Shown in pieces: positions 8,284 to 53,748 of a DNA stretch of 64,000 nucleotides. Under the pieces are notes generated by a model. The model searched no databases, had not been told where the DNA came from, and saw nothing but the letters and a program-made list of their open reading frames with translations. Source of the DNA: Pirellulales bacterium. Lineage in GTDB: Bacteria; Planctomycetota; Planctomycetia; Pirellulales; Thermoguttaceae. The first letter of the stretch is position 1. Each line of letters opens with the position of its first letter. The stretch covers positions 781,646-845,645 of the forward strand of contig CAWJUD010000002.1 of assembly GCA_963845975.1 (NCBI GenBank), given 5' to 3'. The position numbers and the translations under genes were made by a program.

Positions 8284-8290
8284 AAATACT

Positions 8291-8356: not shown

Positions 8357-8392
8357 ATGATTTGTGGTTTTTTCAATTTATGGGATATTTTT

Positions 8393-10620: not shown

Positions 10621-10687
10621 CCGAGGCGGCCTTATTAGGCGCTGCTTTGCTCGGTGGCGATGCGGATGAGATCAGCGAGGGCCGATT

Positions 10688-30665: not shown

Positions 30666-30699
30666 TGCACACTTTATTAGGGATTTGAGATCGGGGGAA

Positions 30700-30855
30700 T
30701 CAAACTTTTTGCGGCGGGGTAGCGGTTATAGTGCTGTAGATAATATACCCGACCATGAAAATAACCCACGCTGTCCAGCCCACGGCCGACACGTAAACGT
30801 ACCAATTACTGGGATAGGCAATATAGGCCAAAAAAGCTTTTTTTATTGCATCCAT
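30700..30855 (-). CDS. Small membrane protein (51 aa), not in ORF track
   Basis: MDAIKKAFLAYIAYPSNWYVYVSAVGWTAWVIFMVGYIIYSTITATPPQKV; strong Shine-Dalgarno cagaGGAGaatatATG. Confidence 0.4.
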   Translation of the reverse strand: MDAIKKAFLAYIAYPSNWYVYVSAVGWTAWVIFMVGYIIYSTITATPPQKV

Positions 30856-31007
30856 ATATTCTCCTCTGACGTTTTGTTAGATCTCCTTCTTTAGTTGGTT
30901 TACAGAATTAAAACTAATATATTTTAAATTAAAAAAGGCGATTTGCAAAGTCTGTTTATTCACTCTGATTATACAGTCGATTTGATCCTAATTGGTGGGC
31001 TCACAAA

Positions 31008-32993: not shown

Positions 32994-33366
32994 GACAGCG
33001 ACTCCTCGATAATAAGAGGTTTATTAAGATAACGCTCGAAAAACATCTGTGGCTGGGAAAAAAACACCCCGCGCTCAGTGACATCCATTATAATTCCCCC
33101 GTGGTGGACATTCAATCAGTCGGAATACCGATCAGTAGGGGGGGCAATCCGGATCGCGGGGAAATGCAGGCCAATGGGACAAGAAGCGTCGCACACAACT
33201 CTCGCCACTGGAGAAACATTCGGCGGGAATAGGGAATGGGAAACCGCGGTTAAAATCTTCAACGTTTGATGCGAATGGTTATATGCCTGAACGACCAATA
33301 GTAACGTAATACGCCCCGCAAAGCAAGCCGCTCAGCAGTGGCGCCAATGGATAATAGGTTCCTAAT

Positions 33367-36177: not shown

Positions 36178-36245
36178 TTCTGATGCTCCCTTTTTAAACT
36201 CCCGGCCGGCTTTTCCGAGAGAATATCAAACCAGCCCTTGGTCAA

Positions 36246-38250: not shown

Positions 38251-39405
38251 TTGCCTGCGCGGACCACTATTGACGCGGATTGGTCTCAACGAATTCAAAC
38301 GCTGCTACGGATAGATCTGGATTGGACATTTCTAATCTCGATGGCATACCGGCACAAGCTCATACCGCTCTTGTATCGGCACCTCAGTAGAATAGGCGCC
38401 GGAATTGTTCCTAAGGACATACTTGATCAACTACGAACCTATTTCCAGAAGAACGTTTGCCGCAGTCTTCTTCTCACTCGTGAACTTCTCAGACTACTCA
38501 AGCTCTTTGAAGAGCACAACATTCCCGCCGTTCCTCTTAAAGGACCGGTGCTGGCGGAAACGGTCTACGGCAATGCTTCGTTTCGGCAGTTCGTAGATCT
38601 GGACATCCTCGTCCATAGGAATGATGCCTTGACGGCCAAGAATCTACTAGCTTCACAAGGCTACCTTCCGCTGGACTCCCAGACTGACGCCGAGGCCGCC
38701 GACACTCTTGGATTGGTACCGGAGCATCACTTTTCTTGCATGCGTGACAGCCAGGTTTTCATCGAGCTTCACTGGAGGAGCGATCCGCCCTTGTTTTCCT
38801 TGTCCCTCGAGTCCGAATACTTGTGGGAACGCCTTGTGCCAATACCGTTTGCCGGCACGAAAGTGCTCGGCTTTCCCTCGACGGATCTGCTCTACATGCT
38901 CTGCGAGCACGGGGCCAGGCACTGCTGGCAACAATTGAGCTTAATCTGCGATGTGGCCGAACTCGTTCGTGATCCGCTATGTATAAATTGGAAACAGGTC
39001 TTGGAGCAAGCGAAAAAGACGGGCGGTCAGCGGATACTCTTTCTCGGCCTTTTTATGGCATGGGATCTCCTGGGAGCAGCCCTTCCGGAAAAGGTATTAC
39101 GCATGACACAGACCGACCCTATGGTAAAAGTTATTGCCAGGAAGGTGTACAAAGGATTTCTTCAGGAGAATTACGCCCCCCAGGGCCCTGTGGAAACGCT
39201 GCTTTTTTGGATCAAGGTGAGGGAACGCTTGAGTGATCAAATCCGAATGTGTATCCTTGCATTGGCCCCTGGCATATACGATCGATCCTTTGTGACATTA
39301 CCAAAGTCGTTGTCTTTCCTCTATTACTTGATCCGGCCGATCCGGTTATTTTGGCAGTATGAACTTGGCCCGTTGAGAAGTTACCTTAAGACGTTACTTT
39401 CGTAA
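38251..39405 (+). CDS. Uncharacterised-family nucleotidyltransferase (NTP_transf_5-like), RiPP-cluster associated
   Basis: 384 aa; PLKGPVLAE...FVDLDILVH nucleotidyltransferase motif; convergent with the maturase operon. Confidence 0.6.
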   Translation: MPARTTIDADWSQRIQTLLRIDLDWTFLISMAYRHKLIPLLYRHLSRIGAGIVPKDILDQLRTYFQKNVCRSLLLTRELLRLLKLFEEHNIPAVPLKGPVLAETVYGNASFRQFVDLDILVHRNDALTAKNLLASQGYLPLDSQTDAEAADTLGLVPEHHFSCMRDSQVFIELHWRSDPPLFSLSLESEYLWERLVPIPFAGTKVLGFPSTDLLYMLCEHGARHCWQQLSLICDVAELVRDPLCINWKQVLEQAKKTGGQRILFLGLFMAWDLLGAALPEKVLRMTQTDPMVKVIARKVYKGFLQENYAPQGPVETLLFWIKVRERLSDQIRMCILALAPGIYDRSFVTLPKSLSFLYYLIRPIRLFWQYELGPLRSYLKTLLS

Positions 39406-39505
39406 TCCATCATGAATGATGCGGCTTCGACGCATCAAGTCATATGTCTGCCGTCTTCGAGCTAAGCGACCTTTGCCCTTTCGTCGCGTGGCTGACCGAA
39501 CTCCC

Positions 39506-39997
39506 CTAGCGCTCACCGATGTCATGTCTCCATTGCTGCAGCCGCCGTAGCGCCACTCTTCCACTTCGCCATATCCGACCAGCCGGCCGGAGCAGCCATA
39601 AACTCCAAGGCGCACAGCGCATCCATATCAATATGGCAAGACGCCACGCGCCGCAATCGAAGACACGGACGCGCCCTCTGTGGTAGGAAACAATTGCCTT
39701 GCCCAAAACGTCGCGTTGGGTAAACGGTCCCTCGGAATCTCGCTGCGAGTCGCCGCGTAGAAAGAACTCGTCGCCGTCGATTTTTACGACGCGGTGTAAA
39801 ACGTAGCAATCTTCCAGATGACACACAAGGATCATGTCGCCAAACGACGGCCGAGAGCGCATTGATTCAAGTTCCACCACGTCGCCGTCGTAAATGAATG
39901 GCTCCATGCTCCTGCCGGTGACGGTCAGGCGCACGCGCTGGCCGCGCTCCAGTGCAGCGCGAATGACGGGCATCAGTTCGCGGCTGGGGACATTCAT
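39506..39997 (-). CDS. S24/S26 (LexA/signal-peptidase-like) serine peptidase, candidate leader peptidase
   Basis: TVTGRSMEPFIYDGDVV...LHRVV...VLGKAIV; paralogue of 51234-51821; start overlaps the upstream maturase stop. Confidence 0.6.
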   Translation of the reverse strand: MNVPSRELMPVIRAALERGQRVRLTVTGRSMEPFIYDGDVVELESMRSRPSFGDMILVCHLEDCYVLHRVVKIDGDEFFLRGDSQRDSEGPFTQRDVLGKAIVSYHRGRVRVFDCGAWRLAILIWMRCAPWSLWLLRPAGRIWRSGRVALRRLQQWRHDIGER

Positions 39998-42171
39998 AGC
40001 ACCGACCTCACGAGCGAAACCACCTCGGGCTCCGGGCGGCAGCGGAGGCGATAGACCGGCACACGCGCCAGAATCGCGTCGAGGTTTGCCATTGCACGCT
40101 GCATGAGCGCTCGATCCCAGTAAGGCAGAAACGCACGGGCGAGCAGCAACGGCGCAGAGGCGGAGGGGGAGAGCCGGTGGATTTCATTCTCAGGCGCTTG
40201 TTCCAGCAGGATGAGAGCGAAGAGCGGCGCACGATAATTGAGGGCTATGTTGGCGGTGCCGGCCCAAGGCGTGCCGTAGCACTCCGCACCGCTGGCTTTC
40301 GGTCGTACGGCGATCCGGTCGTCGTTCATCGCAATCACGCCGGCGAACTGACTCCACAAGCTCGCTTGTGTGCTCTTGCCCACACCGGAGTGTCCGACAA
40401 AGACTATGCCGCGCCCGTTGTCGTCAATTCCGGAGGCGTGGAAAAACAGGCCGTCCGTCAAAAGTATCTTGGTGCGCAGAATCAGATCACCTGCCCAGAA
40501 GTTAAGCAGACTCATCCAGGTTGGGCCGTCCCGCTGTTCGGTCAGTGTCAGGTCGTCCCACGCGGCGTTGGCCCGCAGCACTCCTTGCACGTTTTCGCTC
40601 TTATAACTGAATGCGGAGTAGTACGCCTGGGCCTCACGATACATCCGCCAGATGGAGCCCGGACTGTAGATCAATTCACCGTATGGGGATGGCGCTCGAG
40701 TGCTCTCTTCCCAGTCAAGCGACAGTCGCGCAATTGGATCCTCCGGCGCACCAACAAAAGAGCCAAACCACTTTTCGATTCCCATATCAGCGGCCGAAAG
40801 TGGACTATGCACCTCGATCAGAATATCGGCGATAGTAATAGGGATGTTATGCTGGCTGCTCATAATAATTCTTTGCGCCCGAGCTATTTGACACAGATAC
40901 GGTACTGGTTCGGTCAGTGTGTTTGTTTCTGTCAGCGACCATCCCGGGCAGCGCTTGCAGTAGACTCGCGCATCGCAGGAAAGACAAACGGATGCGATGC
41001 GCAACGAATCAACATATTCCTTCACTTGTTCCCATGCCACCGCGAAGCCGACCTCCAAGGGCTTGGCAGCAGGTCGCGGCAGGGATAGACAAGCATTTAT
41101 TTCTCCCGCTGGATTGATGGCAAAGTGCGCTTTACCGCATAGGCAGTGGAAATTGTAGTCACCGGCTGTGGCGTATCCCATGAGTGTGACATCGCTCCAT
41201 TCGTCGGCGGAGATACGATCAGTCGATTCAAGTTTGATACAGTCCTGTACAGACAGGCGGCATTTCTCAACCTCGGAAGGGGTGCCGTCGGGCCGCTTAC
41301 CGAGCAGCCAGTTCCCTGAAAAAGGCACACCCCAGTTGTGCGCCATCTGTCGCATCGCTTCCAGTTCGCCCACATTTTGTCGAGTGATAGTGATCTTCAA
41401 TTCTAGAGGCACGCGGCGCTTGATGAGTGATTCGATCCCGGCGCAACAGTGTGTGTAACTGCCGATCACGCCGGTAACTGCCTCGTAGGTGGCGGCTGTC
41501 GCGCCGTAAAGGGTTATAGTAGTGCAGTTGGGCGGAGCTTGGGCAAGGCGCTCTGCTACTGCCTCACTGATGAGCGTGCCATTGGTGCGGACAGCGATCA
41601 GCAACCCCAAGCGGGTGAGCGGCTCAAAGATTTCAAAAAAGTCGGGCCGCAAAAAGACCTCACCTCCAGTGAGGATCAAGAAGAGCATGCCATGACCCAC
41701 TGCTTGGTTGGCCAGAGACAACCATGCTGCCGCCGGCAGTTCCTTTGCCCGTCGCGCTACGTCATCAGCCGGATGCCGTACGGCGCACATTCGGCAAGCG
41801 AGGTTGCAGCGGGTAGTCAGCTCAAAACTGGCGCTGATAGGCTGACGGCGATCACTGGCGCGCCTGAAAAGTTCATCCGTCAGTGGACCATATTGGGTGG
41901 GAAGCGTGCTCATGCCAAAAGACCCATGCGCAAGTTCGTCCACAAAATTCCGAACATCGACGGCTGCATGTTCTACATCCACATCAAACCGCTCTGCCAT
42001 GCTGTTTGCCAGATAGTCTGCGGAACATTCTTCTGCAAGGAGGGACCAGATAAAGCACCCCGTGTTATTCAGAATCACCATGCCGTTGAGATCCATGACC
42101 CGTGATCCCAGAGGCACCAGCAGATTCTCACCGCTTATATTATGCAGCAGAAGATCATCATTGCGTTTCAT
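39994..42171 (-). CDS. Tri-domain fusion: PqqD-like RRE + radical SAM/SPASM peptide maturase + HprK-related kinase domain
   Basis: N-terminal LLVPLGSRVMDLNGMVILNNTGCFIW (PqqD-like); CNLACRMC radical SAM cluster with SPASM cysteines (CLCGKAHFAINPAGEINAC...CLSCDARVYCKRCPGW); C-terminal GIVFVGHSGVGKSTQASLW P-loop resembling the HPr kinase C-domain. Confidence 0.75.
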   Translation of the reverse strand: MKRNDDLLLHNISGENLLVPLGSRVMDLNGMVILNNTGCFIWSLLAEECSADYLANSMAERFDVDVEHAAVDVRNFVDELAHGSFGMSTLPTQYGPLTDELFRRASDRRQPISASFELTTRCNLACRMCAVRHPADDVARRAKELPAAAWLSLANQAVGHGMLFLILTGGEVFLRPDFFEIFEPLTRLGLLIAVRTNGTLISEAVAERLAQAPPNCTTITLYGATAATYEAVTGVIGSYTHCCAGIESLIKRRVPLELKITITRQNVGELEAMRQMAHNWGVPFSGNWLLGKRPDGTPSEVEKCRLSVQDCIKLESTDRISADEWSDVTLMGYATAGDYNFHCLCGKAHFAINPAGEINACLSLPRPAAKPLEVGFAVAWEQVKEYVDSLRIASVCLSCDARVYCKRCPGWSLTETNTLTEPVPYLCQIARAQRIIMSSQHNIPITIADILIEVHSPLSAADMGIEKWFGSFVGAPEDPIARLSLDWEESTRAPSPYGELIYSPGSIWRMYREAQAYYSAFSYKSENVQGVLRANAAWDDLTLTEQRDGPTWMSLLNFWAGDLILRTKILLTDGLFFHASGIDDNGRGIVFVGHSGVGKSTQASLWSQFAGVIAMNDDRIAVRPKASGAECYGTPWAGTANIALNYRAPLFALILLEQAPENEIHRLSPSASAPLLLARAFLPYWDRALMQRAMANLDAILARVPVYRLRCRPEPEVVSLVRSVL

Positions 42172-42483
42172 GTTATCTCCAAGTTGTTAGTGTTTCTGCA
42201 ATCGTATGGCCACTTCAAACACCGCGACTCCAACGTGGGATTACAATAGTTGTAGATTTGCTCAGCATGGGTTAGTTGCCATGGTAACGAGTTTAGAAGT
42301 CATGTAAACAATTTTATGCAGTCTTTTAATCAATACTTGATTGAAGATACGAACGAACCATATAAAATTAGACCGTTTTCACCGAAAACATCAATAATCT
42401 CATGCCGGTTATCAACCCAAATAAACGCCAGCAAAGAGTTTCTTCTCCATCTTAAGGGAGGTTTCCTATATCTCGATATCACG

Positions 42484-42627
42484 GTGGATGGGGTCAATCA
42501 GGTTGATAACTAGCAAAAAGTCTCTCTTCTATCCTGAGAGGAACAAAGGTTGCCTTGGGCGGCTCATAGGGCTGTTTGGGGCTCGGCTGCTCTTCATTTT
42601 GCTGGATGACTTCTTTTGGATCATCCG
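42484..42627 (-). CDS. 47-aa Pro/Glu-rich peptide sharing an ATGA junction with the upstream PqqD-like gene; candidate precursor
   Basis: MKNPDDPKEVIQQNEEQPSPKQPYEPPKATFVPLRIEERLFASYQPD; ATG overlaps the upstream stop (acATGAaaa); SD-like aaggga 10 nt upstream; below the 60-aa ORF-track cutoff. Confidence 0.4.
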
Positions 42628-42920
42628 GGTTTTTCATGTTTGTTTCCCTTTCAGTTGAGTTATGTGTAGACTCAGTTCGCTCGCATTGGCGAGGAGGTTG
42701 GTGAAAGCGCGGTCGACTTCCGTTACGAAGTCATCCACAGTGTGCTCCCGTACATCCTCTTCCACACGGCTATGCCCATAGGGTTGATTCCTACTACGGA
42801 GTCGCACCTGTAAGGATTAAACAAGACAGCACAATCGTCGAACTCTTCCCTCAGCACCACCAACGGATTAGCCAACGGTTTTTCAGACTTACTTGTTTGC
42901 ATAACAGAATCCTGATTCAA
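42624..42920 (-). CDS. PqqD-family peptide chaperone (RRE), with a 1-nt deletion frameshift relative to its degenerate paralogue at about 52.5 kb
   Basis: NPLVVLREEFDDCAVLFNPYRCDSVVGINPMGIAVW PqqD pattern; C-terminal part continues in the -1 frame (VDDFVTEVDRAFTNLLANASEL) up to the TGA that overlaps the next ATG. Confidence 0.55.
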
Positions 42921-43112
42921 TAATTGGGGTCACCCCGAAGAGAACCGACGTTAGTCGCGGCTTACAAACACTGCCTCCATGACTAGAGCCAGAAAGACGA
43001 TTAGAAATCTATCATGTCTATAGGAAATGTATATAACCCGGTACAAAACAATGTAGTTATTTTGAAAATAAGCCTGTTGGGGGGGGGCTCTCGAAGAATT
43101 GGCCCAATCGGG

Positions 43113-43412
43113 TTAGGGGCTGATTATGTGTACCGGAATCTGCAGTTCCCATGTACAGGTACGAGTATGTGTACTTCTATGCCGACAACACTCGCCATGA
43201 CCGGCTCGCTTGTCCACCCACTCTGGGCTCCTCTTGTAATGTTTTGCCTTGGTCAATTCGTCTGCCTTGGCCTCCAACAACGTATTGAGCATCTCTTCCA
43301 CCGAGTCCCACACCAAATTGCCCAGGTAGTTCGTTACCTCCTCTTCTTCCTCATTTACCTTATACAATCCCGAAAACTTCTTACATCTGGCATTTTCTGT
43401 CACACTGCTCAT
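43113..43412 (-). CDS. Hypothetical acidic protein with Cys/His/Thr-rich C-terminus (GHGECCRHRSTHTRTCTW)
   Basis: ORF only; possible second precursor type. Confidence 0.3.
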   Translation of the reverse strand: MSSVTENARCKKFSGLYKVNEEEEEVTNYLGNLVWDSVEEMLNTLLEAKADELTKAKHYKRSPEWVDKRAGHGECCRHRSTHTRTCTWELQIPVHIISP

Positions 43413-43774
43413 GGCAGTCTCTTCTGTTGGTAAAGGTTGAGTTTTATTAACATTTTTGTGCGCATGTTTACTATTGGTATTTTTTTGGTATCATTGGATA
43501 TTATAAATCGCTATTTTTAAAGGGAGCTTTCAACCTCGGATTCGGCAACTTCACCGCAACCTTAATATATGTAAGGCGATTTGGTGAATGACATAGCAAT
43601 GCGTATCTTAACCGGTCCGTAGGTTAAGCACTTACCACATTTGTTTTGTCCGCCTTCCGAATGGTTTGTTTTTCAAAAAACACATTAGTGACCGTACTTG
43701 GTTTGTGCGCTTAACTATCTGCCATCTACTATGAGCTATTCGGTTGCGACTGTTAGGCCGCACTAGGATTTTCC

Positions 43775-45589
43775 ATGTCCATCAAAGAAGGTTATCGCAC
43801 AGTTCTGGGCGCATTGCACATTGGTCCCGCCCTCCGTTTAGTCTGGCAGGGATGTCCCGGTTGGACCGTGGCAAGCGTCCTGCTCCTGATCGTACAAGGG
43901 ACGCTGCCGCTTGTGGCGCTTTACGTTCTCAAATTGATCGTTGATGCGGTGGCGGGCGGCCTCCAAGGGGGTGCAGGCGAACACGGATTCGGGCAAGCAG
44001 CCTTCTTGATCGGCATCGCGGGCTTTGTCGCTATTGTCGCGGCTGCCTGCCAGTCTCTGGCGATGCTAGTAGACGAAGCCCAGACGCAAGCCGTTTCCGA
44101 CCACCTGCATCACATTCTCCACGCCAAGTCCGTGGAAATCGATCTCGAGTACTACGAGGATCCGCAGTTTCACGACACATTGCATCGAACCCAGTTCGAG
44201 GCATTTTTCCGGGCCTCGCACATCTTCAGAACGCTATTGCAGTTGGGACAAAACGGGATTTCGCTGGTGGCGATGGTCGTTCTAATCATTTTGTGTCACT
44301 GGCTGGTTGCCGCACTTTTGTTCTTGGCAGCCCTCCCCCTTGCCTTCGTTTATCTGCGGTATGCCAACAAGCTCTATCAATGGCGCCGTGATCGCACTTC
44401 CACCGAACGCCAGGCGACCTACCTACACTGGCTGCTAACCAGGAGCGAACCCGCTAAAGAACTTCGACTTTTTTCCCTGGGTAATCTGTTCATGGAACGG
44501 TTCCGGGAGCTGCGCAAACAGCTCCGCGAAGAAAAAATCCATATTGTTATGGCACGTTCGGTGACGGAGTTGGTCACCCAAATCGGCGCTGCCCTGGGTA
44601 TTATCGGGGCCTATGCGTTTGTGACGTATCGTGCCTTTCAAGGTTTTATGACACTTGGCGATCTGGTGATGTATTTTCAGGCATGCCAGCGGGCACAAGG
44701 TTTTTTCCAACAGTTGCTGAGCGGTTTCAGCAGTCTCTACGAGGACAATCTGTTTCTCGCGGACTTATGCGACTTCTTTGCCCTGAAGCGCAAGGTTCTT
44801 GAGCCTGGTCACCCGAAACCCATGCCCAAGCAAATGGAGACTGGGATCGTATTTGAGGGGGTCGGCTTCCGCTATCCAAACAGCACGAAAGTGGTGCTCA
44901 ACGACATCAATCTGACAATCCGTCCTGGAGAAATTGTGGCGCTGGTCGGCGAGAACGGGGCGGGTAAAACAACGTTGATCAAGCTTCTCTGCCGATTGTA
45001 TGATCCGACTAGCGGCAGTATTCGGCTCGATGGAATCGATCTGCGCCAGTTCCGGACTATTGATCTACGGCGCGACATCAGCGTCGTATTTCAGGACTAC
45101 ATGCAGTACTACACCACCGCGCGGGAAAACATCTGGTTTGGCAATACCGATTTGCCATGCGATCAGGAACGAATTGCAGTTGCGGCGCGGCAGGCCGGCG
45201 CCGACCGCGTGATCGCCAAGTTGCCTCGCGGCTATGACACGATCCTGGGAAAATTGTTCGACACAGGAGAAGAATTAAGCACCGGCGAATGGCAGAAGCT
45301 CGCCCTTGCGAGGGCGTTTCTCCGCGACGCCCAGATCGTCGTGCTGGATGAGCCGACAAGTGCCATGGGAGCCAGGGCCGAATTGCAGGTCTTCAATAAG
45401 TTCCGCCGGCTGATCGAAGGCCGCACGGCAATCCTGATCAGTCATCGGTTTTCGACCGTCCGGATTGCAGACCGGATCTTTGTGCTCGACGAGGGGAGAA
45501 TCATCGAATCTGGCAACCATGAAGAATTAATAGCCCGGGGGGGAACCTATGCTCGACTCTTTGAAATCCAAGCACAATCTTACAGATGA
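43775..45589 (+). CDS. ABC transporter, fused permease/ATP-binding exporter
   Basis: Six N-terminal TM helices; Walker A GENGAGKTTL, signature LSTGEWQKLALARAF, Walker B IVVLDEPTSAMG. Confidence 0.85.
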   Translation: MSIKEGYRTVLGALHIGPALRLVWQGCPGWTVASVLLLIVQGTLPLVALYVLKLIVDAVAGGLQGGAGEHGFGQAAFLIGIAGFVAIVAAACQSLAMLVDEAQTQAVSDHLHHILHAKSVEIDLEYYEDPQFHDTLHRTQFEAFFRASHIFRTLLQLGQNGISLVAMVVLIILCHWLVAALLFLAALPLAFVYLRYANKLYQWRRDRTSTERQATYLHWLLTRSEPAKELRLFSLGNLFMERFRELRKQLREEKIHIVMARSVTELVTQIGAALGIIGAYAFVTYRAFQGFMTLGDLVMYFQACQRAQGFFQQLLSGFSSLYEDNLFLADLCDFFALKRKVLEPGHPKPMPKQMETGIVFEGVGFRYPNSTKVVLNDINLTIRPGEIVALVGENGAGKTTLIKLLCRLYDPTSGSIRLDGIDLRQFRTIDLRRDISVVFQDYMQYYTTARENIWFGNTDLPCDQERIAVAARQAGADRVIAKLPRGYDTILGKLFDTGEELSTGEWQKLALARAFLRDAQIVVLDEPTSAMGARAELQVFNKFRRLIEGRTAILISHRFSTVRIADRIFVLDEGRIIESGNHEELIARGGTYARLFEIQAQSYR

Positions 45590-45874
45590 CAGTCGCATGA
45601 TGATGCCAGAAAGGAAAATGGACAATAAGATTAAAACCGTCTGGAAGTTGAATTTGCCAATCGGTATTGACACCAAGATGTGCACATAGGAGGATGAACC
45701 TGGCAAGGCTTCCCGGAGCCATTGTGTCGTTCCTGCACCAAAGTGAAAGGACCGTCCGACAAGGTAACATTGCATTCTTCAGGGAAATTCACGCATAGTG
45801 AGAAATATATCGGCTTTACCTAGAATCTCGGGCTCATTGTGCGATTCGTTAGGCCATTCTTGGAGGAAACAATC

Positions 45875-46213
45875 ATGGAAACAAGAAAATTACTCTCCCT
45901 CAAACATATTTTATCACTCGGTCTGATCTGCGGGTTAATCCTGATGTTTGCGGGTTGTGCGCACCAACCAGCCCCACCCCTACCCCCACAGAATGTTCCC
46001 GGCTTCTGGTCGGGACTGCTTCATGGGTTACTGATTGTGTTTAGCTTTATTGGCAGCCTATTCATGGATGTCCGGATATACGCATACCCCAATTCCGGGA
46101 TACTTTACGATCTCGGATTCCTAATAGGCGCCAGTGGGGCCCTTGCTGGCGGGGGTGTAAGTGTGTGCCGTAAAAAACGTGCTTCCGACTCCGTCAGTGG
46201 CGGCCGAGATTGA
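45875..46213 (+). CDS. Small lipoprotein/membrane protein
   Basis: Signal peptide with lipobox LMFAGC, then two hydrophobic helices. Confidence 0.45.
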   Translation: METRKLLSLKHILSLGLICGLILMFAGCAHQPAPPLPPQNVPGFWSGLLHGLLIVFSFIGSLFMDVRIYAYPNSGILYDLGFLIGASGALAGGGVSVCRKKRASDSVSGGRD

Positions 46214-46219
46214 GCCGCG

Positions 46220-47198
46220 TCAAGCATTAATTATGGTCTTCATGAGAACATCGACGGTCTGGTCCAAAGGGCCGGGATGTAATTCGTAGCACTCGGCCTT
46301 GCGCAGGGCCGCCCCTAAGGTCGACATGGATCGATAGGCTCGGGCTGGATCGGCGATCATGTTATTGAGCGAGAGCAGCATTGCGGCGGTGATGGCCCGG
46401 GCGCGAGGCATCGGTTCTAATCTGGGCGCGTCTTCGAATCCGCCGAGGAAAAAAAAGTACCGCAGATTACATGGCGAGCCTATTTCGACATCATCAGCAT
46501 GGAGAATGTGAACTCCCAATGAATCATCATAGGCGTTTCGGATTTTGTGTAGCATCTTGTCGTCTATGCAGCCCTCGATCAACGGCAAACTTTCCGGACG
46601 AACCGAGATCGACTTGGGCAAAGGGACCATCCGGTACAACTCCTTGTGGAACACAGTGACATCGTCGGAGAAATATCGAAAGCCCTGGCCCAGTAGTCCC
46701 AGCGTCAGCGTTGTTTTGCCCCGCATTGTTGGCCCCGCCAGCGCCACGCCCTGCCCATTCCATGATAGTCCGGCAGCGTGCAGTAGTTCGTGAGACTGCA
46801 CTTTTGAGAAGCAGAATGGCGAATACTTGCGTTCGGCATAGATTGTAGAGCGATTCGATGGCAAGGATATAGATATTTGCGAGGCCTTCGGAAAAGATGG
46901 CAAGATACGGTTCGCCATCACCGCTGATAAGCATGAAGATGGGAACACTGTTGGCTCGGTTCTCCGTCTTCAGACTTCCGTAAATGGCATCGAGACATCG
47001 GATGACAACACGGTCGTTGGTCTTGACACGGACGAACACGTCCAACAACCGATAGGTTCGTTCCAACTCCTCCTGCCACTTCATGTTCTGGAGTTCCTGC
47101 ACCACCCCAGATACTATCTCCCTATCCGATAGCCTTTTGCATAGCGACATGCCGTCTAGACGCAGCATCTCAGAGACCAACTGTGGTGATTGCATCAT
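46220..47198 (-). CDS. HprK-related serine kinase (stand-alone); one frameshift near 46920
   Basis: GVALAGPTMRGKTTLTLGLLGQGFRYFSDD matches the HPr kinase C-domain P-loop (GxxGxGKS/T...ADD); ATGATG start at 47198 overlaps the last 30 nt of the B12-rSAM gene. Confidence 0.65.
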
Positions 47199-48552
47199 TG
47201 TTCTCCAACAGAAGATTCCACTTCGCCAAGAAATTCGAGTCTTCGAAACGCCAGTAGGGGGCAAAAACCTTGGGATGATCTTTGATCAATTGCAGCATCT
47301 CCGCGCTTCCATTGTTCAGGGCCATCATCGATCCGTCGCCGCGGCATACGAAGCGGACCTTTGCCGCCGCCTCGTCGAAGAGAATGCTGTCTTTGTACTC
47401 CGCGTACAGCGGCGAATTCGGCATCGGCATCAGGTGGTTGAACGCGAGTATCATCGAGCACTTGCCCTCCGCCGCCTGGGAAATGTAAAAGACAAGGAAC
47501 ATGGTCTCCTTGAATTCGATTAACGTTTCGAAGGGAAATCCCCACATCAGGAAAAGTTTGATGGTTTTGAAATGCGACATCGATTGAACGATGGTGTGGG
47601 TGGCCTCCTTGATGCTGAATCCCTTGTGAAGTATCTTCAGGACCGAATCAGACCCGGACTCCAGCCCGTAGCCGATTGCAGTGCAACCCGTTGCAGTCAT
47701 GCACCTTAGCAGCTCCTCGTCCATTAGATCCACGCGTCCCAAGCAGCTCCACTCGCTGCCGGGGGCCGCCCGTTGCAGTCCTTCGCAGAATTGTTGCACT
47801 CGCTGTTTTGATAGCACGAATGTATCGTCATGGATACTGAACTCTTTCTTCCCAAACTCGTGGTACAACAAATGAACTTCCCGGAGGACGTTATCCATGT
47901 CTCGATAACGAGCCCGGCGCCCCCAGTATGTGGATATATCGCAGAACGTACAATTGTGCGGGCAACCCCGGGTTGTTAGAATGCTCGCCCTTTCATATTT
48001 TTCGAGATCCAGAAGTTGATAGGCGGGAAAGGGCCGATGGTCGAGGTCGGAGATCAATTCCCGCGCCGGCGCGGTCCACGCGGAACCATCTTCCTTTCGC
48101 ACTATCACCCCCTTGACGCGACCGCATTCTCCCGGCGCGGACTCCAGGTAATGCATCAGTTCAACAATCGTGTCGTCAGCCTCTCCGCGAACAACCACGT
48201 CGATCCAGGGAAAAGATTCGATGATCGCCTCCGCGACGCCGGACGGTCCCGCCCCGCCGAGCACGAAAACCTTGTGCGGATCGAGCTGCTTCACCTTTTT
48301 CGTAGCGAGGATGACCACCGGCAGCATGTCGTACATGCACCCGATCCCGACTACGTCCGCACAACCGGAGAGAAACGAGACAAACGTATCGACGTCAAAG
48401 GGATTCTCGTATGGGTAGGTCTGGTAGTCCTTGAAGTCCACCTTATAACCGCTTTGTACAAGCGAGGTCGCTATGTGCAAGGGCCCCAAAGGAATGAAGT
48501 GTTTTTTCGGATCAATACGGTCATACGCGGCAACGATTGATATATCGCTCAT
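47170..48552 (-). CDS. B12-binding-domain radical SAM enzyme
   Basis: N-terminal cobalamin-binding Rossmann region followed by TTRGCPHNCTFCD CxxxCxxC. Confidence 0.8.
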   Translation of the reverse strand: MSDISIVAAYDRIDPKKHFIPLGPLHIATSLVQSGYKVDFKDYQTYPYENPFDVDTFVSFLSGCADVVGIGCMYDMLPVVILATKKVKQLDPHKVFVLGGAGPSGVAEAIIESFPWIDVVVRGEADDTIVELMHYLESAPGECGRVKGVIVRKEDGSAWTAPARELISDLDHRPFPAYQLLDLEKYERASILTTRGCPHNCTFCDISTYWGRRARYRDMDNVLREVHLLYHEFGKKEFSIHDDTFVLSKQRVQQFCEGLQRAAPGSEWSCLGRVDLMDEELLRCMTATGCTAIGYGLESGSDSVLKILHKGFSIKEATHTIVQSMSHFKTIKLFLMWGFPFETLIEFKETMFLVFYISQAAEGKCSMILAFNHLMPMPNSPLYAEYKDSILFDEAAAKVRFVCRGDGSMMALNNGSAEMLQLIKDHPKVFAPYWRFEDSNFLAKWNLLLENNDAITTVGL

Positions 48553-48572
48553 AGTTGCACTTGGGATAAATT

Positions 48573-48857
48573 CTAGGAATCGCCTGCGCTGCAACGCCCG
48601 ATCAGTTGCTTGGCCTCTAGCTGCCGGATCAGATCTTCAACGTCCGTTGAAATCGCAACCGCGTCCCCCTGATAGGACGAACAGAGCCCGTTCACGATTT
48701 CGGCGACTGTCCTTTTCCCGTCCAGAAGTCTCCATATACTTGCCGCGATTCGATTAAGCACGGATACTTTGCGGCCCTGGGAATCATACAAAATGACCTC
48801 GTCCTCAAGGTCCTGGCAAGCCACATTAGCATTGTGTTGGTAAATGCCATCGAGCAT
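48573..48857 (-). CDS. PqqD-family peptide chaperone (RRE)
   Basis: VILYDSQGRKVSVLNRIAASIWRLLDGKRTVAEIV...DVEDLIRQLEAKQLI. Confidence 0.7.
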   Translation of the reverse strand: MLDGIYQHNANVACQDLEDEVILYDSQGRKVSVLNRIAASIWRLLDGKRTVAEIVNGLCSSYQGDAVAISTDVEDLIRQLEAKQLIGRCSAGDS

Positions 48858-48921
48858 GGCAGGTCTCCTAAATAATCATAAACGGCCCCGCTTCGTCAAC
48901 CGTGATATCGGGTCCTTTGTA

Positions 48922-49980
48922 TCAGTATAAAAAAGGTACGGCATGTTCCCGAAATCCCCGGGATTTCCGCGAACGCGCAACGATCTCTTCCCGAAGGTGA
49001 TTGATCATCACCGTGGCCGCACATGCAAGCTCTCGACGCCTGGTTTCCGATCCAAGGCGATCGCACAGAGATTGCAAAACCTCCGGGCGAGAGAGCATGG
49101 CCATGCACAGTTCGCATTTAGTGACGCAATTGGTCGGTTTCTCCAGGATCACGCCGCTTCCCTCGAGTTCTTGTAACAAGCCGGCAGGGCCGCCGAGTCG
49201 AAGAATGTTCAGCAGAGGCGACCTGTCTGCCTTGTGCAATATCTCCACTAAGGAAGAACGCTTGGCGTTTCCCAGGATCAAAGGGCTGTCCGGGGTAAAA
49301 GCCAGATAAGGCCCGCAACAAGCGACCACCGTGCCGTCGGGGAGCACGTTTGGCACGAAGGAAACGAAGCAGCCGGAATTCGGGGCATGTGTAGACGTTA
49401 TCATCTCGGATCGCGGAATGGACTTGGCGCGGCCGAATGGAACCACCGGCTGATCGCCGAGGGGAACGCGCTCCTCGGATAAGACGCTGTGGATCTGTTC
49501 CGCCACCGGATCGTCGCGAAGCACCGAAAGATTGACTATAACGTGAATGTCGTTCTTCTTGCAGGCCCTCACGGCGTTCAGAACATTTTCCATCGGCACA
49601 AACTGCACATGAAATTGATCGGTGCTGATGGCAATCATTTTGACGCCACGTTGCTTCAGCATGGCCGTGGTATCTATAGCTTCGCCGAGAGTCCGCGCCC
49701 AATAGGTGTCGGTCTGAACGACCGGTCGCAGGCCGCAATCTCGCGACATTTCCACCAGGTGCAGTACGTCGTCGGGAAACAGCATGGGTTCGCCGCCGGT
49801 GATCCATAACACGCGAAACCCTGCCTTTGCAGCCTCCTCCACGGTCTTTTCTGCCAGAGGCATTGGCATGACTTCAGAACGTTCCGGACCACATTCGAAG
49901 ACGCAATGTCCACATCGAGCATTGCACTTAGACGTATATACCAAACAAAGAATCGCAGGTAATCTTTCTGCAGTCTTCAC
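48922..49980 (-). CDS. Radical SAM/SPASM-domain peptide maturase
   Basis: YTSKCNARCGHC CxxxCxxC; C-terminal SPASM cysteines (CCGPY...CVTKCELCMAM); GTG start. Confidence 0.8.
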   Translation of the reverse strand: MKTAERLPAILCLVYTSKCNARCGHCVFECGPERSEVMPMPLAEKTVEEAAKAGFRVLWITGGEPMLFPDDVLHLVEMSRDCGLRPVVQTDTYWARTLGEAIDTTAMLKQRGVKMIAISTDQFHVQFVPMENVLNAVRACKKNDIHVIVNLSVLRDDPVAEQIHSVLSEERVPLGDQPVVPFGRAKSIPRSEMITSTHAPNSGCFVSFVPNVLPDGTVVACCGPYLAFTPDSPLILGNAKRSSLVEILHKADRSPLLNILRLGGPAGLLQELEGSGVILEKPTNCVTKCELCMAMLSRPEVLQSLCDRLGSETRRRELACAATVMINHLREEIVARSRKSRGFREHAVPFLY

Positions 49981-50218
49981 AAGTACTTTACTTTCCCGGC
50001 GATGCCTTAGTCATAAACCAAGAGTCGTCTAATACATAGTAACATTCATTCCGTCTCTTCACCAAGCAGAGACGATAAAATGTATATATCCACCGCCAAA
50101 CGTATACTTTGCAGCGTTTGATTGTATGCATCCACGTCTTAAAACACGTTCACATGCTGCTTTGACTATGCAACCCACTTATTGGCGCCGCATCGACAAT
50201 ACTTTATCGGCCTGTGCA

Positions 50219-50374
50219 CTAGCTGGTGTAAGTAATTGGTCCAGGGAGGGTGAATATTTGATTTTCAGGGTCAAATTTCGCCGCCACCTTTACCTTCCCC
50301 AGGACTTCATTCTCATCGTACTCCGTGATTTGAGGCTTTTCCCATATCTGCATGTCTATCTTTTCCATATTCAT
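50219..50374 (-). CDS. Precursor peptide A (51 aa)
   Basis: MNMEKIDMQIWEKPQITEYDENEVLGKVKVAAKFDPENQIFTLPGPITYTS; leader shared with copies B and C, divergent core, ITYTS tail; the 87-aa track ORF is an over-extension. Confidence 0.6.
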   Translation of the reverse strand: MNMEKIDMQIWEKPQITEYDENEVLGKVKVAAKFDPENQIFTLPGPITYTS

Positions 50375-50388
50375 AAACCCATACCTTT

Positions 50389-50535
50389 CTACTTCACAAT
50401 CTGTGCCGTCATAAGCACTGGCATGACCTCCGAACGCTCCGGAACACATTCCCAAATGCAATGTCCACATCGAGCATTGCACTTAGACGTGTATACCAAA
50501 CAAAGAAGCGCTGGTAATCTTTCTACAGTCCTCAC
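50389..50535 (-). pseudogene. Duplicated 5' fragment (48 codons then stop) of the radical SAM/SPASM gene
   Basis: VRTVERLPALLCLVYTSKCNARCGHCIWEC... is about 85% nt-identical to 49840-49980, including the upstream region. Confidence 0.6.
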
Positions 50536-50827
50536 AAGTAATTTACTTTCCCGGCGATGTCTTAGTCATAAACCAAAAATCGCCGAATATATAGTAATGC
50601 TCAATCCACCTCTTCACCAAGTACCAACAACATAGTGCATACAAACCCACCACTAAGTGGAGGCTTCATATGCACCATTGGATTGCATGCATCCACCGCA
50701 CAAGGCAGGCTCAATTGTATCTTTCACTACATACTACCCACTTATTGGCAGCGCATTGACATAACTTTATCGATCTGTCGTAAAGCGGCTACTTTTTCCG
50801 GGCGAAGTTTGGGATAAAGCGTAGGCA

Positions 50828-50974
50828 CTAGCTAGTATAATTAATTGCAAAGGAAAGTGTGTATAAATTTTCAGCATCAAATTTCGCCGCCACCCTTACC
50901 TTCCCCAGGACTTCATTCTCATCGTATTCCGTGATCTGTGGCTTTTCCCAAATCTACATGTCGGTCATGTTCAT
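50828..50974 (-). pseudogene. Precursor peptide B, interrupted by in-frame amber (TAG) at codon 7
   Basis: MNMTDM*IWEKPQITEYDENEVLGKVRVAAKFDAENLYTLSFAINYTS; CAG to TAG relative to A and C. Confidence 0.5.
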
Positions 50975-51087
50975 AAATCATCTAAACCTTTCTTAAAGCG
51001 GCTATTGACAGCATATCGACTAAACTTTATCGATCTGTCGTAAAGCGGCTACTTTTTCCGGGCGCAGTTTCGGATAAAGCGTAGGCA

Positions 51088-51237
51088 CTAGCTAGTATAA
51101 GTAATTGAGCCGGCAACTGTCCAAGTTTGACCTTCAGGGTCAAATTGCGCCGCCACCTTTACCTTCCCCAGGACTTCATTCTCATCGTACTCCGTGATCT
51201 GGGGCTTTTCCCAAATCTGCATGTCGGTCGTGTTCAT
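51088..51237 (-). CDS. Precursor peptide C (49 aa)
   Basis: MNTTDMQIWEKPQITEYDENEVLGKVKVAAQFDPEGQTWTVAGSITYTS; ATG overlaps the TGA of the upstream peptidase gene (ATGA). Confidence 0.6.
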   Translation of the reverse strand: MNTTDMQIWEKPQITEYDENEVLGKVKVAAQFDPEGQTWTVAGSITYTS

Positions 51238-51821
51238 AAATCACCTAAACCTTTCTTAAAGTGCCGGAAGGCAGAAACGAAAGTCAGAACCTTTAAACAA
51301 AATTGAAGCACGCCAATGGATACCACACGTAAGCATCGAAATATCGTTCTCGTGATGAGGTTGTGATTGTTAGGCCAGATCCATTCCTTGACGCTCCTTG
51401 CCAGCCGGTAAAAATACCACATTACATATCCATATAGTCCTAAAAACCGATTCACTATTGTCCAGTGCAAGGTCTCGTAATGATGCCGCGATGCGGTATT
51501 CTGCACAACGATCACTTTTCCTAGCACTGCCCCTATATCGAGTTTTCTATACACAAAGGAATTGTCGCCCTTCTCCAGAAGACGATCTCCTTGCCGCCCG
51601 ACAAATCGATGGACGACCAGATGTCCATGTTCCTCGAATACAAGTATGTCTCCGATCGTCAACTTATCGGCTTGTAACGATCTTACGATCAGATTGTCGC
51701 CGGGACGAATAATAGGCGACATGCTTGTACCCATCGATTCGAATGTTGCCTCACCATGGTGGCGAAGGCGCATCTGCGCCACAAGTACTGCCAAGTCTTG
51801 TTCCTTACGATCTCCCGCCAT
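51234..51821 (-). CDS. S24/S26-like serine peptidase, paralogue of 39506-39997; candidate leader peptidase
   Basis: ESMGTSMSPIIRPGDNLIV...GDILVF...HLVVHRFV...VLGKVIVV; stop overlaps precursor C start. Confidence 0.6.
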   Translation of the reverse strand: MAGDRKEQDLAVLVAQMRLRHHGEATFESMGTSMSPIIRPGDNLIVRSLQADKLTIGDILVFEEHGHLVVHRFVGRQGDRLLEKGDNSFVYRKLDIGAVLGKVIVVQNTASRHHYETLHWTIVNRFLGLYGYVMWYFYRLARSVKEWIWPNNHNLITRTIFRCLRVVSIGVLQFCLKVLTFVSAFRHFKKGLGDL

Positions 51822-52335
51822 CTTCTCATTCTTCTAAATAAATGTGTTTTATCGTTGCATAAAAGGCGTGCTCTAGGAAACGCTTCTCGGCACACCCATC
51901 GCTGTAAACATCGAACACGTCTACAGGTTACAGCGGCTCCTTGGCGAACAGCCGAGTCAGTAGAATCACAGTAGCATTAAGTGCGTTGCCTCCGTTGTCA
52001 TTTTCAAGCTACCGCACCTCTGAATAACAATCCGGGTCCTAACATTTCCTGTATGTGATGAGTATGGACCGGATCCAATTTCACCATAAATCTTTTTGCA
52101 TATCCAAAAGGTCACGCTCAGCAGTAATCTTGTGCATTCACGAGCTACAGTAATAAATCACCCTTAATGCCGTTCACTCACGTAGCTTTAGTTTTGCTCA
52201 CCGAACGAGCACAAATATCCCTCTACTAAGCGATAAAACTTTAGATTTTTACCTATGGATCCAAAAGGCGGATCATTTCGTTTAAAACGAATACTACCTC
52301 TTGACATTATTGGAATAGAATTATGATTAAACAGC

Positions 52336-52363
52336 ATTATACTATGCTAGCAAGTCTTGTCAA
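52336..52363 (-). promoter_or_regulatory. Near-consensus sigma70-type promoter (TTGACA-16 nt-TATAAT) reading toward the peptidase/precursor operon
   Basis: On the - strand: TTGACAagacttgctagcatagTATAAT in an AT-rich region about 500 nt upstream of 51821. Confidence 0.4.
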
Positions 52364-52419
52364 TCATTCGGACCGCCAAGTCAAGAAAAATTTTAGGGGG
52401 GGTGCTTTGATTTCAGCCA

Positions 52420-52692
52420 CCGACAGCCGCGTTTGGCGGAGATATCGGCGGAGGCGCGCTCGGCTACCGTTACGAAGTCATCCATGCTGTACTTACCGTA
52501 CACAAGCTACCACACTGCTATTCCAATAGGGTTGATCCCCACTGCGTCGCTCGAGTCGGGATTGAACAAAGGCTCCTCCCTCAGTACCACCAAGGGATTA
52601 GCCGCTGGTTTTTCGGATTTCCTCGTTTTCATAGAAATGCAGACTATATTTTCCATTAATCCCCCGACGCCGCCAATTGACCGCCTCCACAT
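52420..52692 (-). pseudogene. Degenerate second copy of the PqqD-like gene (premature TAG and internal deletion)
   Basis: MKTRKSEKPAANPLVVLREEPLFNPDSSDAVGINPIGIAVW* aligns with 42624-42920 at nt level, including flanks. Confidence 0.5.
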
Positions 52693-53661: not shown

Positions 53662-53748
53662 GGATGGGTGGCCGAGTGGTCTAAGGCGGCAGTCTTGAAA
53701 ACTGCTGTGGGCGTGAGTCCACCGGGGGTTCGAATCCCTCCCCATCCG
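53662..53748 (+). tRNA. tRNA-Ser (anticodon UGA)
   Basis: Acceptor GGATGGG/CCCATCC, anticodon stem GCAGT/ACTGC with loop CTTGAAA (U33-UGA-A37), long variable arm, T arm GGGGG-TTCGAAT-CCCTC, discriminator G. Confidence 0.85.

Follow-up and report, generated by a model that had tools for sequence, protein, structure and literature searches.

The stretch analysed here, called the window, is 64,000 nucleotides (nt) of contig CAWJUD010000002.1 from a Pirellulales bacterium, and its 38.25–52.7 kb interval carries the gene inventory of a locus for ribosomally synthesised peptides that are modified after translation (RiPPs). Open reading frames (ORFs) of the 34–56 kb region were listed and the sizeable ones scanned against Pfam and NCBIfam. 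The inventory comprises an NTP_transf_5 nucleotidyltransferase-fold protein, two SipW/S26-like peptidases, three radical S-adenosylmethionine (radical SAM, rSAM) enzymes, two HprK/PEPCK-fold kinases, PqqD proteins, an ABC exporter and four small genes for peptides of leader type; of the rSAM enzymes, one is a SPASM enzyme fused to PqqD, the second a SPASM enzyme resembling YydG and the third a B12 enzyme resembling ApyD. Genes for EF-G, OMP decarboxylase and UvrD near the cluster give it a chromosomal setting. The encoded EF-G groups, at 90% identity or above, with Thermoguttaceae proteins from metagenome-assembled genomes. The interval reads as a chromosomal RiPP biosynthetic locus of a Thermoguttaceae-like planctomycete, built from two related units of common logic with the unit B and unit A chemistry proposed below, a reading held at a probability of roughly 0.6. 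In each unit, a precursor with a leader would be combined with a leader-recognition element of PqqD type, a maturase of the radical-SAM/SPASM kind, a P-loop kinase with the HprK/PEPCK fold and a leader peptidase resembling SipW/S26. The division into two related units is drawn from gene order, gene overlaps and homologues, with unit A extending over 39.5–42.6 kb and unit B over 46.2–51.8 kb together with the ABC exporter and the NTP_transf_5 gene.

Unit B runs along the minus strand, beginning with peptidase B, a SipW/S26-like Ser/His peptidase and putative leader peptidase (51234–51821; PF00717, E 1e-5; PF10502; TIGR02228, E 7e-9), followed by the precursor genes B3 (51088–51237), B2 (50828–50974) and B1 (50219–50374). 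Next in order are the YydG-like radical SAM/SPASM enzyme with its CNARCGHC motif (48922–49980; PF04055, PF13353, PF13186), a PqqD-family RiPP recognition protein (48573–48857; PF05402, E 3e-15), a B12-binding rSAM enzyme and putative C-methyltransferase (47170–48552, within the ORF 47170–48594; PF02310, PF04055), and a stand-alone HprK-related kinase bearing the motifs GPTMRGKTT and SDD (46220–47195). The ABC exporter, composed of permease and ATPase (43775–45589, plus strand; PF00005, PF00664), and the NTP_transf_5 gene (38251–39405, plus strand; PF14907, E 2e-62) are placed with unit B because both sit in an orthologous cassette carried by metagenome contigs L004–L007. Relative to that cassette the window arrangement is rearranged, its parts being separated by unit A and by a fragment of an IS256/Mutator-family insertion-sequence transposase between the units (43113–43412, minus strand; PF00872, E 1.1e-6, profile positions 19–81 of 379).

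On contigs L004–L007 the unit B orthologue forms a compact, collinear and co-oriented eight-gene cassette, ordered S24 peptidase, precursor of 53 amino acids (aa), rSAM enzyme, PqqD, B12-rSAM, 319-aa kinase, ABC exporter and NTP_transf_5. Protein identities between unit B and the L004 copy are 56% for the rSAM enzyme, 41% for PqqD, 56% for the B12-rSAM, about 48% for the kinase, 64% for the exporter, 29% for NTP_transf_5, 40% for peptidase B and 63% for precursor B3. That these eight genes keep their synteny at about 55% identity is the chief argument that they lie together for a functional reason and not by chance. Within the locus, genes overlap through ATGA junctions, which suggests translational coupling.

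Precursors B1 (MNMEKIDMQIWEKPQITEYDENEVLGKVKVAAKFDPENQIFTLPGPITYTS; 51 aa) and B3 (MNTTDMQIWEKPQITEYDENEVLGKVKVAAQFDPEGQTWTVAGSITYTS; 49 aa) are intact, each with a Shine-Dalgarno-like sequence upstream, and B2, whose seventh codon is an in-frame TAG, is a pseudogene with the C-terminus AINYTS. The three genes belong to a repeat family (50216–51238) whose copies are 69–84% identical and whose intergenic segments are repeated as well. Alignment of the B paralogues with the homologous L004 precursor reveals an almost invariant leader, W-E-x-P-Q-I-x-E-Y-D-E-x-E-V-L-G-K-V-K-V-A-A-x-F, followed by variable cores of about 17–19 residues in which Y-T is the sole invariant element. A near-invariant leader joined to a variable core is the pattern usual for RiPPs, and such precursors lie here beside rSAM enzymes that keep CX3CX2C and beside a PqqD-type element, as in radical-SAM RiPPs that depend on a RiPP recognition element (RRE). 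The C-termini of the B family read ITYTS, ITYTS and INYTS, and that of the L004 precursor CTYTTN, so the conserved C-terminal element is (T/N)-Y-T with its Tyr three or four residues from the end. None of the B precursors matches an NCBIfam family.

Unit A, likewise on the minus strand, comprises precursor A (42494–42637), the PqqD-rSAM/SPASM maturase with a ScmC-like kinase domain (39994–42171) and peptidase A, a second SipW/S26-like Ser/His peptidase and putative leader peptidase (39506–39997; PF00717, E 1.2e-6), whose start is joined to the upstream gene's stop by an ATGA overlap. The central ORF of 725 aa consists of an N-terminal PqqD domain, a Radical_SAM core and a C-terminal P-loop domain, with a seven-Cys SPASM pattern recognised by eye. 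Its maturase part (40864–42171; PF05402, E 1.5e-12; PF04055, E 8e-14) aligns with the MftC, ScmE/F, PqqE and AlbA models of NCBIfam, and the remaining part (39994–40863) forms the ScmC-type HprK/PEPCK-fold domain, carrying GHSGVGKST and NDDR.

Precursor A (MKNPDDPKEVIQQNEEQPSPKQPYEPPKATFVPLRIEERLFASYQPD; 47 aa) is supported by a gene call in contig L003 and by leader homology; its leader ...PYEPPKATFVPLRIEERL precedes a short core, FASYQPD. The leader pattern Y-(E/A)-P-P...(V/I)-P-(L/V)-(K/R)-x-(E/D)-E-R-(L/M) is common to peptides encoded directly upstream of PqqD-rSAM orthologues in contigs L011, L012 and L102, and the corresponding peptide of L002 holds a looser version (YEAPKARCVRVKVAERL). 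The cores of these orthologous unit A-type peptides are Cys-rich (MGCGKGAAKVVCAFGCK; GTCTYTTPSLCGYTT); a Cys-rich core remnant was sought downstream of precursor A and not found. Because both leader families combine an aromatic-E-x-P-(K/Q) element with a subsequent V-(K/R)-(V/I)-(A/E)-(A/E) stretch, units A and B look like diverged paralogues.

Close relatives of the 725-aa protein (48–59% identity) are mostly PqqD-rSAM proteins of 434–464 aa that carry no kinase, with the exception of P0002 (59%), which is fused like the window protein and thus provides a fused homologue independent of the window. Since most orthologues have no kinase, this domain is not obligatory for a unit A-type maturase and is an add-on there. 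A second group of homologues forms a broad family of about 650 aa in which an rSAM enzyme is fused to PF27840, named 'ScmC' in gene tables; precomputed PF27840 assignments exist for P0002, P0072 and this fusion family.

Several related loci were observed alongside these proteins. The PqqD-rSAM orthologues of unit A (L001, L011, L012, L102; P0005, P0008, P0006) occur as minimal precursor–rSAM pairs, surrounded by mobile and defence genes that include integrases, IS66 and DDE transposases, NERD, BrnT/HigB toxins, restriction-modification, AcrVA2-like and TraG/TrwC proteins, a context that suggests a horizontally mobile peptide system. Contig L002 contains an inverted block duplication (1–11344) with outward-facing arms, each composed of an ABC transporter, a 48-aa precursor (…ERLGTCTYTTPSLCGYTT) and a PqqD-rSAM gene. 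Contigs L008–L010 from Dehalococcoidia hold a larger SCM-type cluster with, in order, an rSAM-ScmC fusion, a second rSAM, a GT9 glycosyltransferase, PqqD, a 381-aa protein, a SAM methyltransferase and a third rSAM, in which no precursor gene was called.

For the unit B SPASM enzyme, the best NCBIfam match by a wide margin is the YydG model TIGR04078, to which it aligns from end to end (E 1e-31; 110.5 bits, cutoff 300). The B12-rSAM enzyme matches ApyD best (E 7e-48; 163 bits, cutoff 750) and the RiPP C-methyltransferase model TIGR03975 next, the ApyD match ending at position 455 of a 645-position model. The free-standing PqqD protein is matched by the PqqD, ScmD and lasso-PqqD models.

Both kinases score below threshold with Pfam Hpr_kinase_C and are recognised by more specific models. 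The stand-alone kinase aligns with HprK_rel_A (TIGR04352) over 190 residues (E 1.5e-18; 66.9 bits, cutoff 200), a model that gives 71.1 bits on P0141 against the same cutoff, while HprK_rel_B scores amount to 33–35 bits against 200. The fused domain is matched by HprK_rel_B (TIGR04355, E 1e-8) and by ScmC (TIGR04249, E 4.4e-5; 23 bits, cutoff 125). A sequence search of the fused domain against the PDB returned nothing meaningful. An AlphaFold (AF2) model of this domain, built with 24 homologues, reaches a pLDDT of 86.6 and a pTM of 0.86, and a Foldseek search of the PDB with the model finds only PEPCK or HprK/P among the 50 best matches listed (probability 1.00, E down to 4e-6). GHSxxGKST and DDR are invariant or near-invariant in 25 ScmC-type sequences, and across 40 relatives of the stand-alone kinase GK and D do not vary; all 40 of these relatives are matched by HprK_rel_A and HprK_rel_B, and 30 by the genuine HPr(Ser) kinase model. 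With a PEPCK-like fold, a Walker A P-loop and an acidic DD motif in place, both proteins are, on the evidence of sequence and model, very probably active HprK/PEPCK-fold phosphotransferases.

By an exhaustive phmmer search, the stand-alone kinase belongs to a large superfamily, with 5009 representatives at E ≤ 1e-3, but has a single close relative; when the intact kinase was the query of a word-indexed homologue search, the L004 orthologue was the sole match. P0141 has 363 relatives at E ≤ 1e-10. The nearest relative outside the cassette, P0160 (33% identity), is encoded on contig L094, where a kinase, an S24-like peptidase, PqqD and NTP_transf_5 lie together in this order at 20–2931; its nucleotidyltransferase is 30% identical to that of the window. 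As judged from these gene neighbourhoods, kinase, S24 peptidase, PqqD and NTP_transf_5 form a recurring module. No rSAM gene lies in the 8 kb downstream on L094, and the contig ends just upstream of the kinase. A scan of GTDB species-representative genomes with an rSAM alignment did not find the full cassette and yielded only relatives of about 30% identity (Bathyarchaeia, Syntrophobacteraceae, Methanoregula, Acidobacteriota and others), near which tblastn detected no kinase, nucleotidyltransferase, PqqD or S24 gene. In metagenomes, a scan with the precursor alignment gave no matches, and one with the kinase alignment gave seven weak loci and no further cassette.

Peptidases A and B both exceed the PF00717 cutoff, and their best NCBIfam match is archaeal or endoplasmic reticulum (ER)-type signal peptidase I; peptidase A also matches the SodN maturation protease. 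The motifs SMxP, HR and GD are invariant across the two window peptidases and those of L004 and L094, and together constitute the Ser/His signature of ER-type (SipW/Sec11) signal peptidases. Neither protein has an N-terminal membrane anchor, and the C-terminus of peptidase B is hydrophobic. Pfam detects no C39 peptidase domain in the ABC exporter, and a separate leader peptidase is therefore needed. Between the exporter and the kinase lies a small predicted lipoprotein or membrane protein (45839–46213, plus strand) with a lipobox-like LMFAGC and hydrophobic segments; it has no Pfam match and no counterpart called in L004, and it may be an immunity or accessory protein whose membership in the cluster is uncertain. 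A sigma-70 consensus, TTGACA-16-TATAAT (52336–52363, minus strand; 12/12 match), located about 515 nt upstream of peptidase B, between that gene and a PqqD pseudogene, is a candidate operon promoter of unit B; promoter-like matches in the region do not exceed the shuffled expectation, which makes it weak evidence.

Comparison with two Logan contigs of run ERR10755944, L003 and L093, which match the window at 99.9%, locates several single-base differences. The single 725-aa ORF hinges on an extra C at 40875 that is absent from L003 (99.89% identical), where the rSAM gene ends ...ARAKELL-stop and the kinase gene starts at an overlapping ATG (ATGA), giving two genes. Similarly, an extra T at about 46809–46810 frameshifts the stand-alone kinase in the window, so that the L004 kinase matches it in two frames, and L093 (99.92%) carries an intact 324-aa gene together with a 1-nt deletion of its own that frameshifts the B12-rSAM. 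The fusion and the broken kinase of the window are thus single-base states, which may stem from assembly errors or strain variation. Programmed frameshifting was considered for these indels and rejected, as they differ between 99.9%-identical assemblies and occur at unrelated sites.

Other lesions are genuine or shared. PqqD-like pseudogene 1 (42634–42920, minus strand; three-frame translation; repaired PqqD match, E 1.4e-3) is interrupted by a 1-nt frameshift near 42747 that is also present in the independent contig L003, and its paralogue, pseudogene 2 (52393–52692, minus strand; repaired match, E 0.018), identified from repeats and translation, is broken by an internal stop and has a deletion. 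A 253-nt remnant located between precursors B1 and B2 (50389–50641, minus strand; translation MRTVERLPALLCLVYTSKCNARCGHC...) duplicates the 5' end of the unit B rSAM gene along with its upstream region, being 82% identical to 49834–50086. This repeat architecture shows that the precursor–rSAM junction was duplicated and that one rSAM copy was truncated.

These data bear on a first-pass annotation, made from the letters and their translations, that had described a single RiPP-like cluster. The gene types it listed are present at their positions according to Pfam and NCBIfam, and the RiPP character is borne out by leader peptides, PqqD, rSAM maturases, peptidase and exporter. Its HprK-like assignment of the kinases agrees with the AF2/Foldseek fold and the conserved P-loop and DD motifs, and a homologous locus with a co-localised 53-aa precursor exists in the L004–L007 cassette. 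Other points needed revision. The co-localised genes are real, but they resolve into two units with separate sets of precursor, rSAM, kinase and peptidase genes, and the reported PqqD-rSAM/SPASM-HprK fusion is present in the window but depends on the one C missing from L003. Of its four PqqD ORFs, of which it had called one degenerate, two are solid and two are pseudogenes; all four of its small peptide genes were found, three of them ending in YTS, but B2 is interrupted.

Gene content, the kinase fold with its catalytic motifs, precursor-family homology and unit B synteny are established observations, on which the chemistry of both units is built entirely by inference. Three precedents guide it. 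HprK homologues (PadeK, PsmK) phosphorylate the C-terminal Ser of lasso-peptide precursors, leaving a stable phosphate; PsmN, a nucleotidyltransferase-fold protein of the pseudomycoidin pathway, adds hexoses to that lasso-peptide phosphate; and ApyD β-methylates the penultimate Tyr, beside the precursor C-terminus (+14 Da).

In unit B, the two intact precursors of 49–51 aa would be made and their leaders bound by the free-standing PqqD. The YydG-like SPASM enzyme would then abstract a hydrogen from the core, most likely for epimerisation, as its nearest family suggests, with a crosslink as the alternative. The B12-rSAM enzyme would C-methylate the core, the conserved Tyr or a neighbouring residue being a plausible target by comparison with ApyD. 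By analogy with PadeK and PsmK, the kinase would use ATP to phosphorylate a Ser/Thr hydroxyl of the (T/N)-Y-T-(S/T) motif, and NTP_transf_5 may add a hexose onto this phosphate in the manner of PsmN. The S26-like peptidase would cleave after V-A-A, a site compatible with the -3/-1 rule of signal peptidases, and the ABC transporter would export the product. Unit A would act likewise on a precursor with the leader Y-E-P-P-K...E-E-R-L and the core FASYQPD, using a single PqqD-rSAM/SPASM maturase (MftC/PqqE/ScmE-like), an adjoining or fused kinase and its own peptidase.

The first-pass annotation had expected a different product, crosslinked (-2 Da) and phosphorylated or nucleotidylated at a C-terminal Ser/Thr. 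Modification of a C-terminal Ser is not secure, the L004 precursor ending in CTYTTN. For unit B, a -2 Da crosslink is not what the nearest families of its enzymes predict, namely mass-neutral epimerisation for YydG and +14 Da for ApyD, and nucleotidylation gives way to the NTP_transf_5 precedent of hexose addition to phosphate. In place of that product, unit B is tentatively proposed, with the odds somewhat against so detailed a scheme, to define a new RiPP class: a linear peptide that is epimerised or crosslinked and C-methylated, phosphorylated at (T/N)-Y-T-(S/T), possibly phosphoglycosylated, and released from its leader by a cytoplasmic SipW/S26-like homologue, with unit A as a simpler form. 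The prediction of the specific product is weak.

Several findings weigh against the reading of the locus as two such biosynthetic units. The full unit B cassette was found in only one other lineage, kinase and peptidase are absent beside most unit A rSAM orthologues, and the enzymes fall far below the cutoffs of named families (YydG 110/300, ApyD 163/750, HprK_rel_A 67/200 and ScmC 23/125 bits), so that function cannot be transferred with confidence. The L004 precursor, the sole orthologous one, ends in Asn and not in Ser, which makes a strict, paeninodin-like specificity for a C-terminal Ser untenable across the family. The core of precursor A is short and Cys-free, whereas those of orthologous systems are Cys-rich, and this precursor may be a degenerate substrate. 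Signs of decay are also present, including the two PqqD pseudogenes with the ~42747 frameshift shared with L003, the nonsense codon of B2, the truncated rSAM duplicate, the IS256 fragment and, in this assembly, the frameshifted unit B kinase. Together with the B12-rSAM frameshift of L093, the aberrant precursor A core and a gene orientation rearranged relative to the collinear L004 cassette, they could indicate that the locus is what is left of duplicated RiPP cassettes, decaying and mostly without function, and yields no mature product in this strain. That outcome is unlikely, because the enzymes are full-length with their catalytic motifs save for the single-base kinase frameshift, two precursors are intact with Shine-Dalgarno-like sequences, and the pseudogenes are redundant copies; in addition, two 99.9%-identical assemblies disagree on the lesions in essential genes, which look like assembly indels or rare variants and not like fixed mutations. 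The HprK/ScmC-like proteins might instead leave no final phosphate and serve for transient Ser/Thr activation, act in the phosphorylase direction or provide an ATP-dependent rSAM scaffold, which is a minority possibility. HprK/P is bifunctional, acting as kinase and phosphorylase, and in class III and IV lanthipeptide synthetases phosphorylation serves activation only; moreover, the frequent fusion of ScmC-type domains to rSAM/SPASM enzymes (~650 aa) suggests coupling with radical chemistry over late tailoring, and the C-terminal Ser is not conserved. However, Pfam scans of the cluster revealed neither a lyase nor an elimination domain, the only HprK homologues characterised as peptide modifiers leave phosphates that are stable, and NTP_transf_5 co-occurs with the kinase in the window, L004 and L094, as would fit a phosphate that persists and is decorated.

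Another reading divides the locus differently, taking kinase, PqqD, S24 peptidase and NTP_transf_5 as an independent module with its own substrate and the rSAM genes as a separate neighbouring pathway. The four adjacent genes of L094 with no rSAM in 8 kb downstream, the usual absence of a kinase from unit A rSAM orthologues and the PqqD chaperone specific to the HPr-rel-A system of NCBIfam are compatible with it, but it is made quite improbable by the L004–L007 contigs, where rSAM, PqqD, B12-rSAM and kinase are contiguous, co-oriented and partly overlapping with one precursor and one PqqD between them. Furthermore, fusion or ATGA coupling ties the kinase domain to the rSAM gene in the window and in P0002, an entire rSAM-ScmC fusion family exists, and an rSAM gene upstream of the L094 kinase is possible since the contig ends there. 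The accessory genes of the paeninodin and pseudomycoidin clusters, for an HprK-like kinase, an NTP_transf_5 protein, PqqD and an ABC exporter, are all present beside precursors ending in Ser, which could also point to an atypical lasso cluster with a missed cyclase and protease, a reading that was rejected and retains next to no probability. As the first-pass annotation had stated, lasso cyclase and B2 protease are missing: no ORF among the cluster ORFs scanned matches the Asn_synthase or transglutaminase-core families, L004 has neither, and the peptidases present are S24/S26-like. No window ORF of at least 500 aa matches Asn_synthase, although one of 920 aa (11400–14162) has no Pfam match at all, and the precursors have a different conserved leader, no Thr at -2 and no ring-forming acidic residue.

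Should the tentatively proposed RiPP class hold, HprK-like peptide kinases would constitute a general RiPP tailoring and partner family, extending far past lasso peptides and including the widespread rSAM-ScmC fusions. If the chemistry is as proposed, these would be the first HprK-fold peptide kinases to work with radical-SAM maturases, and the ScmC/PF27840 domain, fused to SPASM rSAM enzymes in many uncultured bacteria, would gain a testable function. An S26 signal-peptidase homologue would act as a RiPP leader peptidase, and the phosphoglycosylation pair of kinase and NTP_transf_5 would extend past lasso peptides. Precursors, enzymes and the second cassette in L004 are defined enough for heterologous expression. 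Uncharacterised radical-SAM RiPP families are very numerous, and the window copy shows partial decay; the finding is a good lead in the enzymology of natural products, not a conceptual surprise.

Outside the cluster, the window contains a tRNA-Ser(tga) gene (53662–53748, plus strand), followed by a tyrosine-integrase gene (53681–55051, minus strand) and a DUF3987 primase/helicase-like gene (56311–58398, minus strand). Starting near 50 kb, where the cluster ends on its right, and continuing to the window's end, G+C drops from about 0.53 to 0.41–0.46. On these grounds the segment flanking the RiPP locus on the right resembles an integrated mobile element; a repeat of the tRNA-Ser 3' end was not found within the window. 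To the left, 29278–37709 encodes a PEP-CTERM/DUF7453 protein, a 661-aa SPFH/Band-7 protein, a 936-aa GT2-TPR glycosyltransferase and a flavin amine oxidase, which are excluded from the cluster because they have no counterpart beside the L004 cassette. The 920-aa ORF mentioned above (11400–14162, plus strand) and a 395-aa ORF (9433–10620, plus strand), neither with a Pfam match, are located in a segment with an unusually high G+C of about 0.60 and a strong AT skew of about 0.16.

Among known systems, the combination of rSAM/SPASM enzyme, PqqD and HprK-like protein is already catalogued by curators, as the SynChlorMet cassette (TIGR04248–04251; PF27840, 'ScmC') and as the HPr-rel-A system of kinase and PqqD chaperone (TIGR04352, TIGR04353, TIGR04355), and it is experimentally uncharacterised. 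The initial claim of an uncharacterised combination thus stands in that no experimental paper was found, but not as regards curation. Full-text searches of the searchable literature found no paper linking HprK-like kinases to radical-SAM RiPPs and, in agreement with the first reading, only lasso-peptide work on HPr-kinase homologues in RiPPs; 'SynChlorMet' and 'HprK-related kinase' gave no full-text matches, and no experimental study of ScmC was found. To our knowledge, neither a precursor nor a product has been identified for the SCM cassette. Because equivalog cutoffs are not reached, the window proteins are relatives, not members, of the named families. With respect to HPr-rel-A, the kinase lies under the 200-bit cutoff and PqqD_rel_X scores 14.4 bits against 35.

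The peptidases share SMxP, HR and GD with ER-type and SipW signal peptidases (S26B) and with the SodN protease, their best matches being TIGR02228, TIGR02227 and TIGR02754, but they remain below those cutoffs, have no N-terminal anchor and putatively act on a RiPP leader instead of a Sec signal; no description was found of an S26-family role as RiPP leader peptidase. Unit B resembles the epipeptide system (YydF/YydG) in its YydG-like SPASM enzyme near small precursor genes and an ABC exporter. It differs in precursors unrelated to YydF, in an enzyme below the YydG equivalog cutoff, in having no YydH-type protease, and in the addition of PqqD, B12-rSAM, kinase and nucleotidyltransferase. With the aminopyruvatide enzyme ApyD it shares the best match of its B12-rSAM and a Tyr near the C-terminus, methylated there and invariant here, whereas the window enzyme stops short of the C-terminal part of the model and the cluster has no MNIO, P450 or ApyS partners.

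Unit A resembles SynChlorMet in composition, combining a PqqD domain, an ScmE/F-like SPASM rSAM and a ScmC-like P-loop domain. It contains one rSAM enzyme instead of two (ScmE and ScmF, 84 and 86 bits against cutoffs of 400), its PqqD domain is fused N-terminally, and it also has an S26-like peptidase as well as a precursor that can be identified; the free PqqD of unit B reaches 36.9 bits with ScmD against a cutoff of 100. The lasso-peptide clusters of paeninodin (PadeK) and pseudomycoidin (PsmK and PsmN) share with the window an HPr-kinase homologue that is clustered with a nucleotidyltransferase-fold protein, an RRE of PqqD type and an ABC exporter, and B1 and B3 end in Ser, the residue phosphorylated by PadeK and PsmK. 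A lasso-type PqqD-like RRE is represented by the PqqD at 48573–48857, which the lasso PqqD models score at 30–32 bits, below their cutoffs. In contrast to those clusters, the window locus is defined by its rSAM enzymes, has an S26-like leader peptidase in place of cyclase and B2 protease, and carries kinases that are distant relatives of the lasso enzymes and whose target, given an orthologous precursor that ends in Asn, is probably internal.

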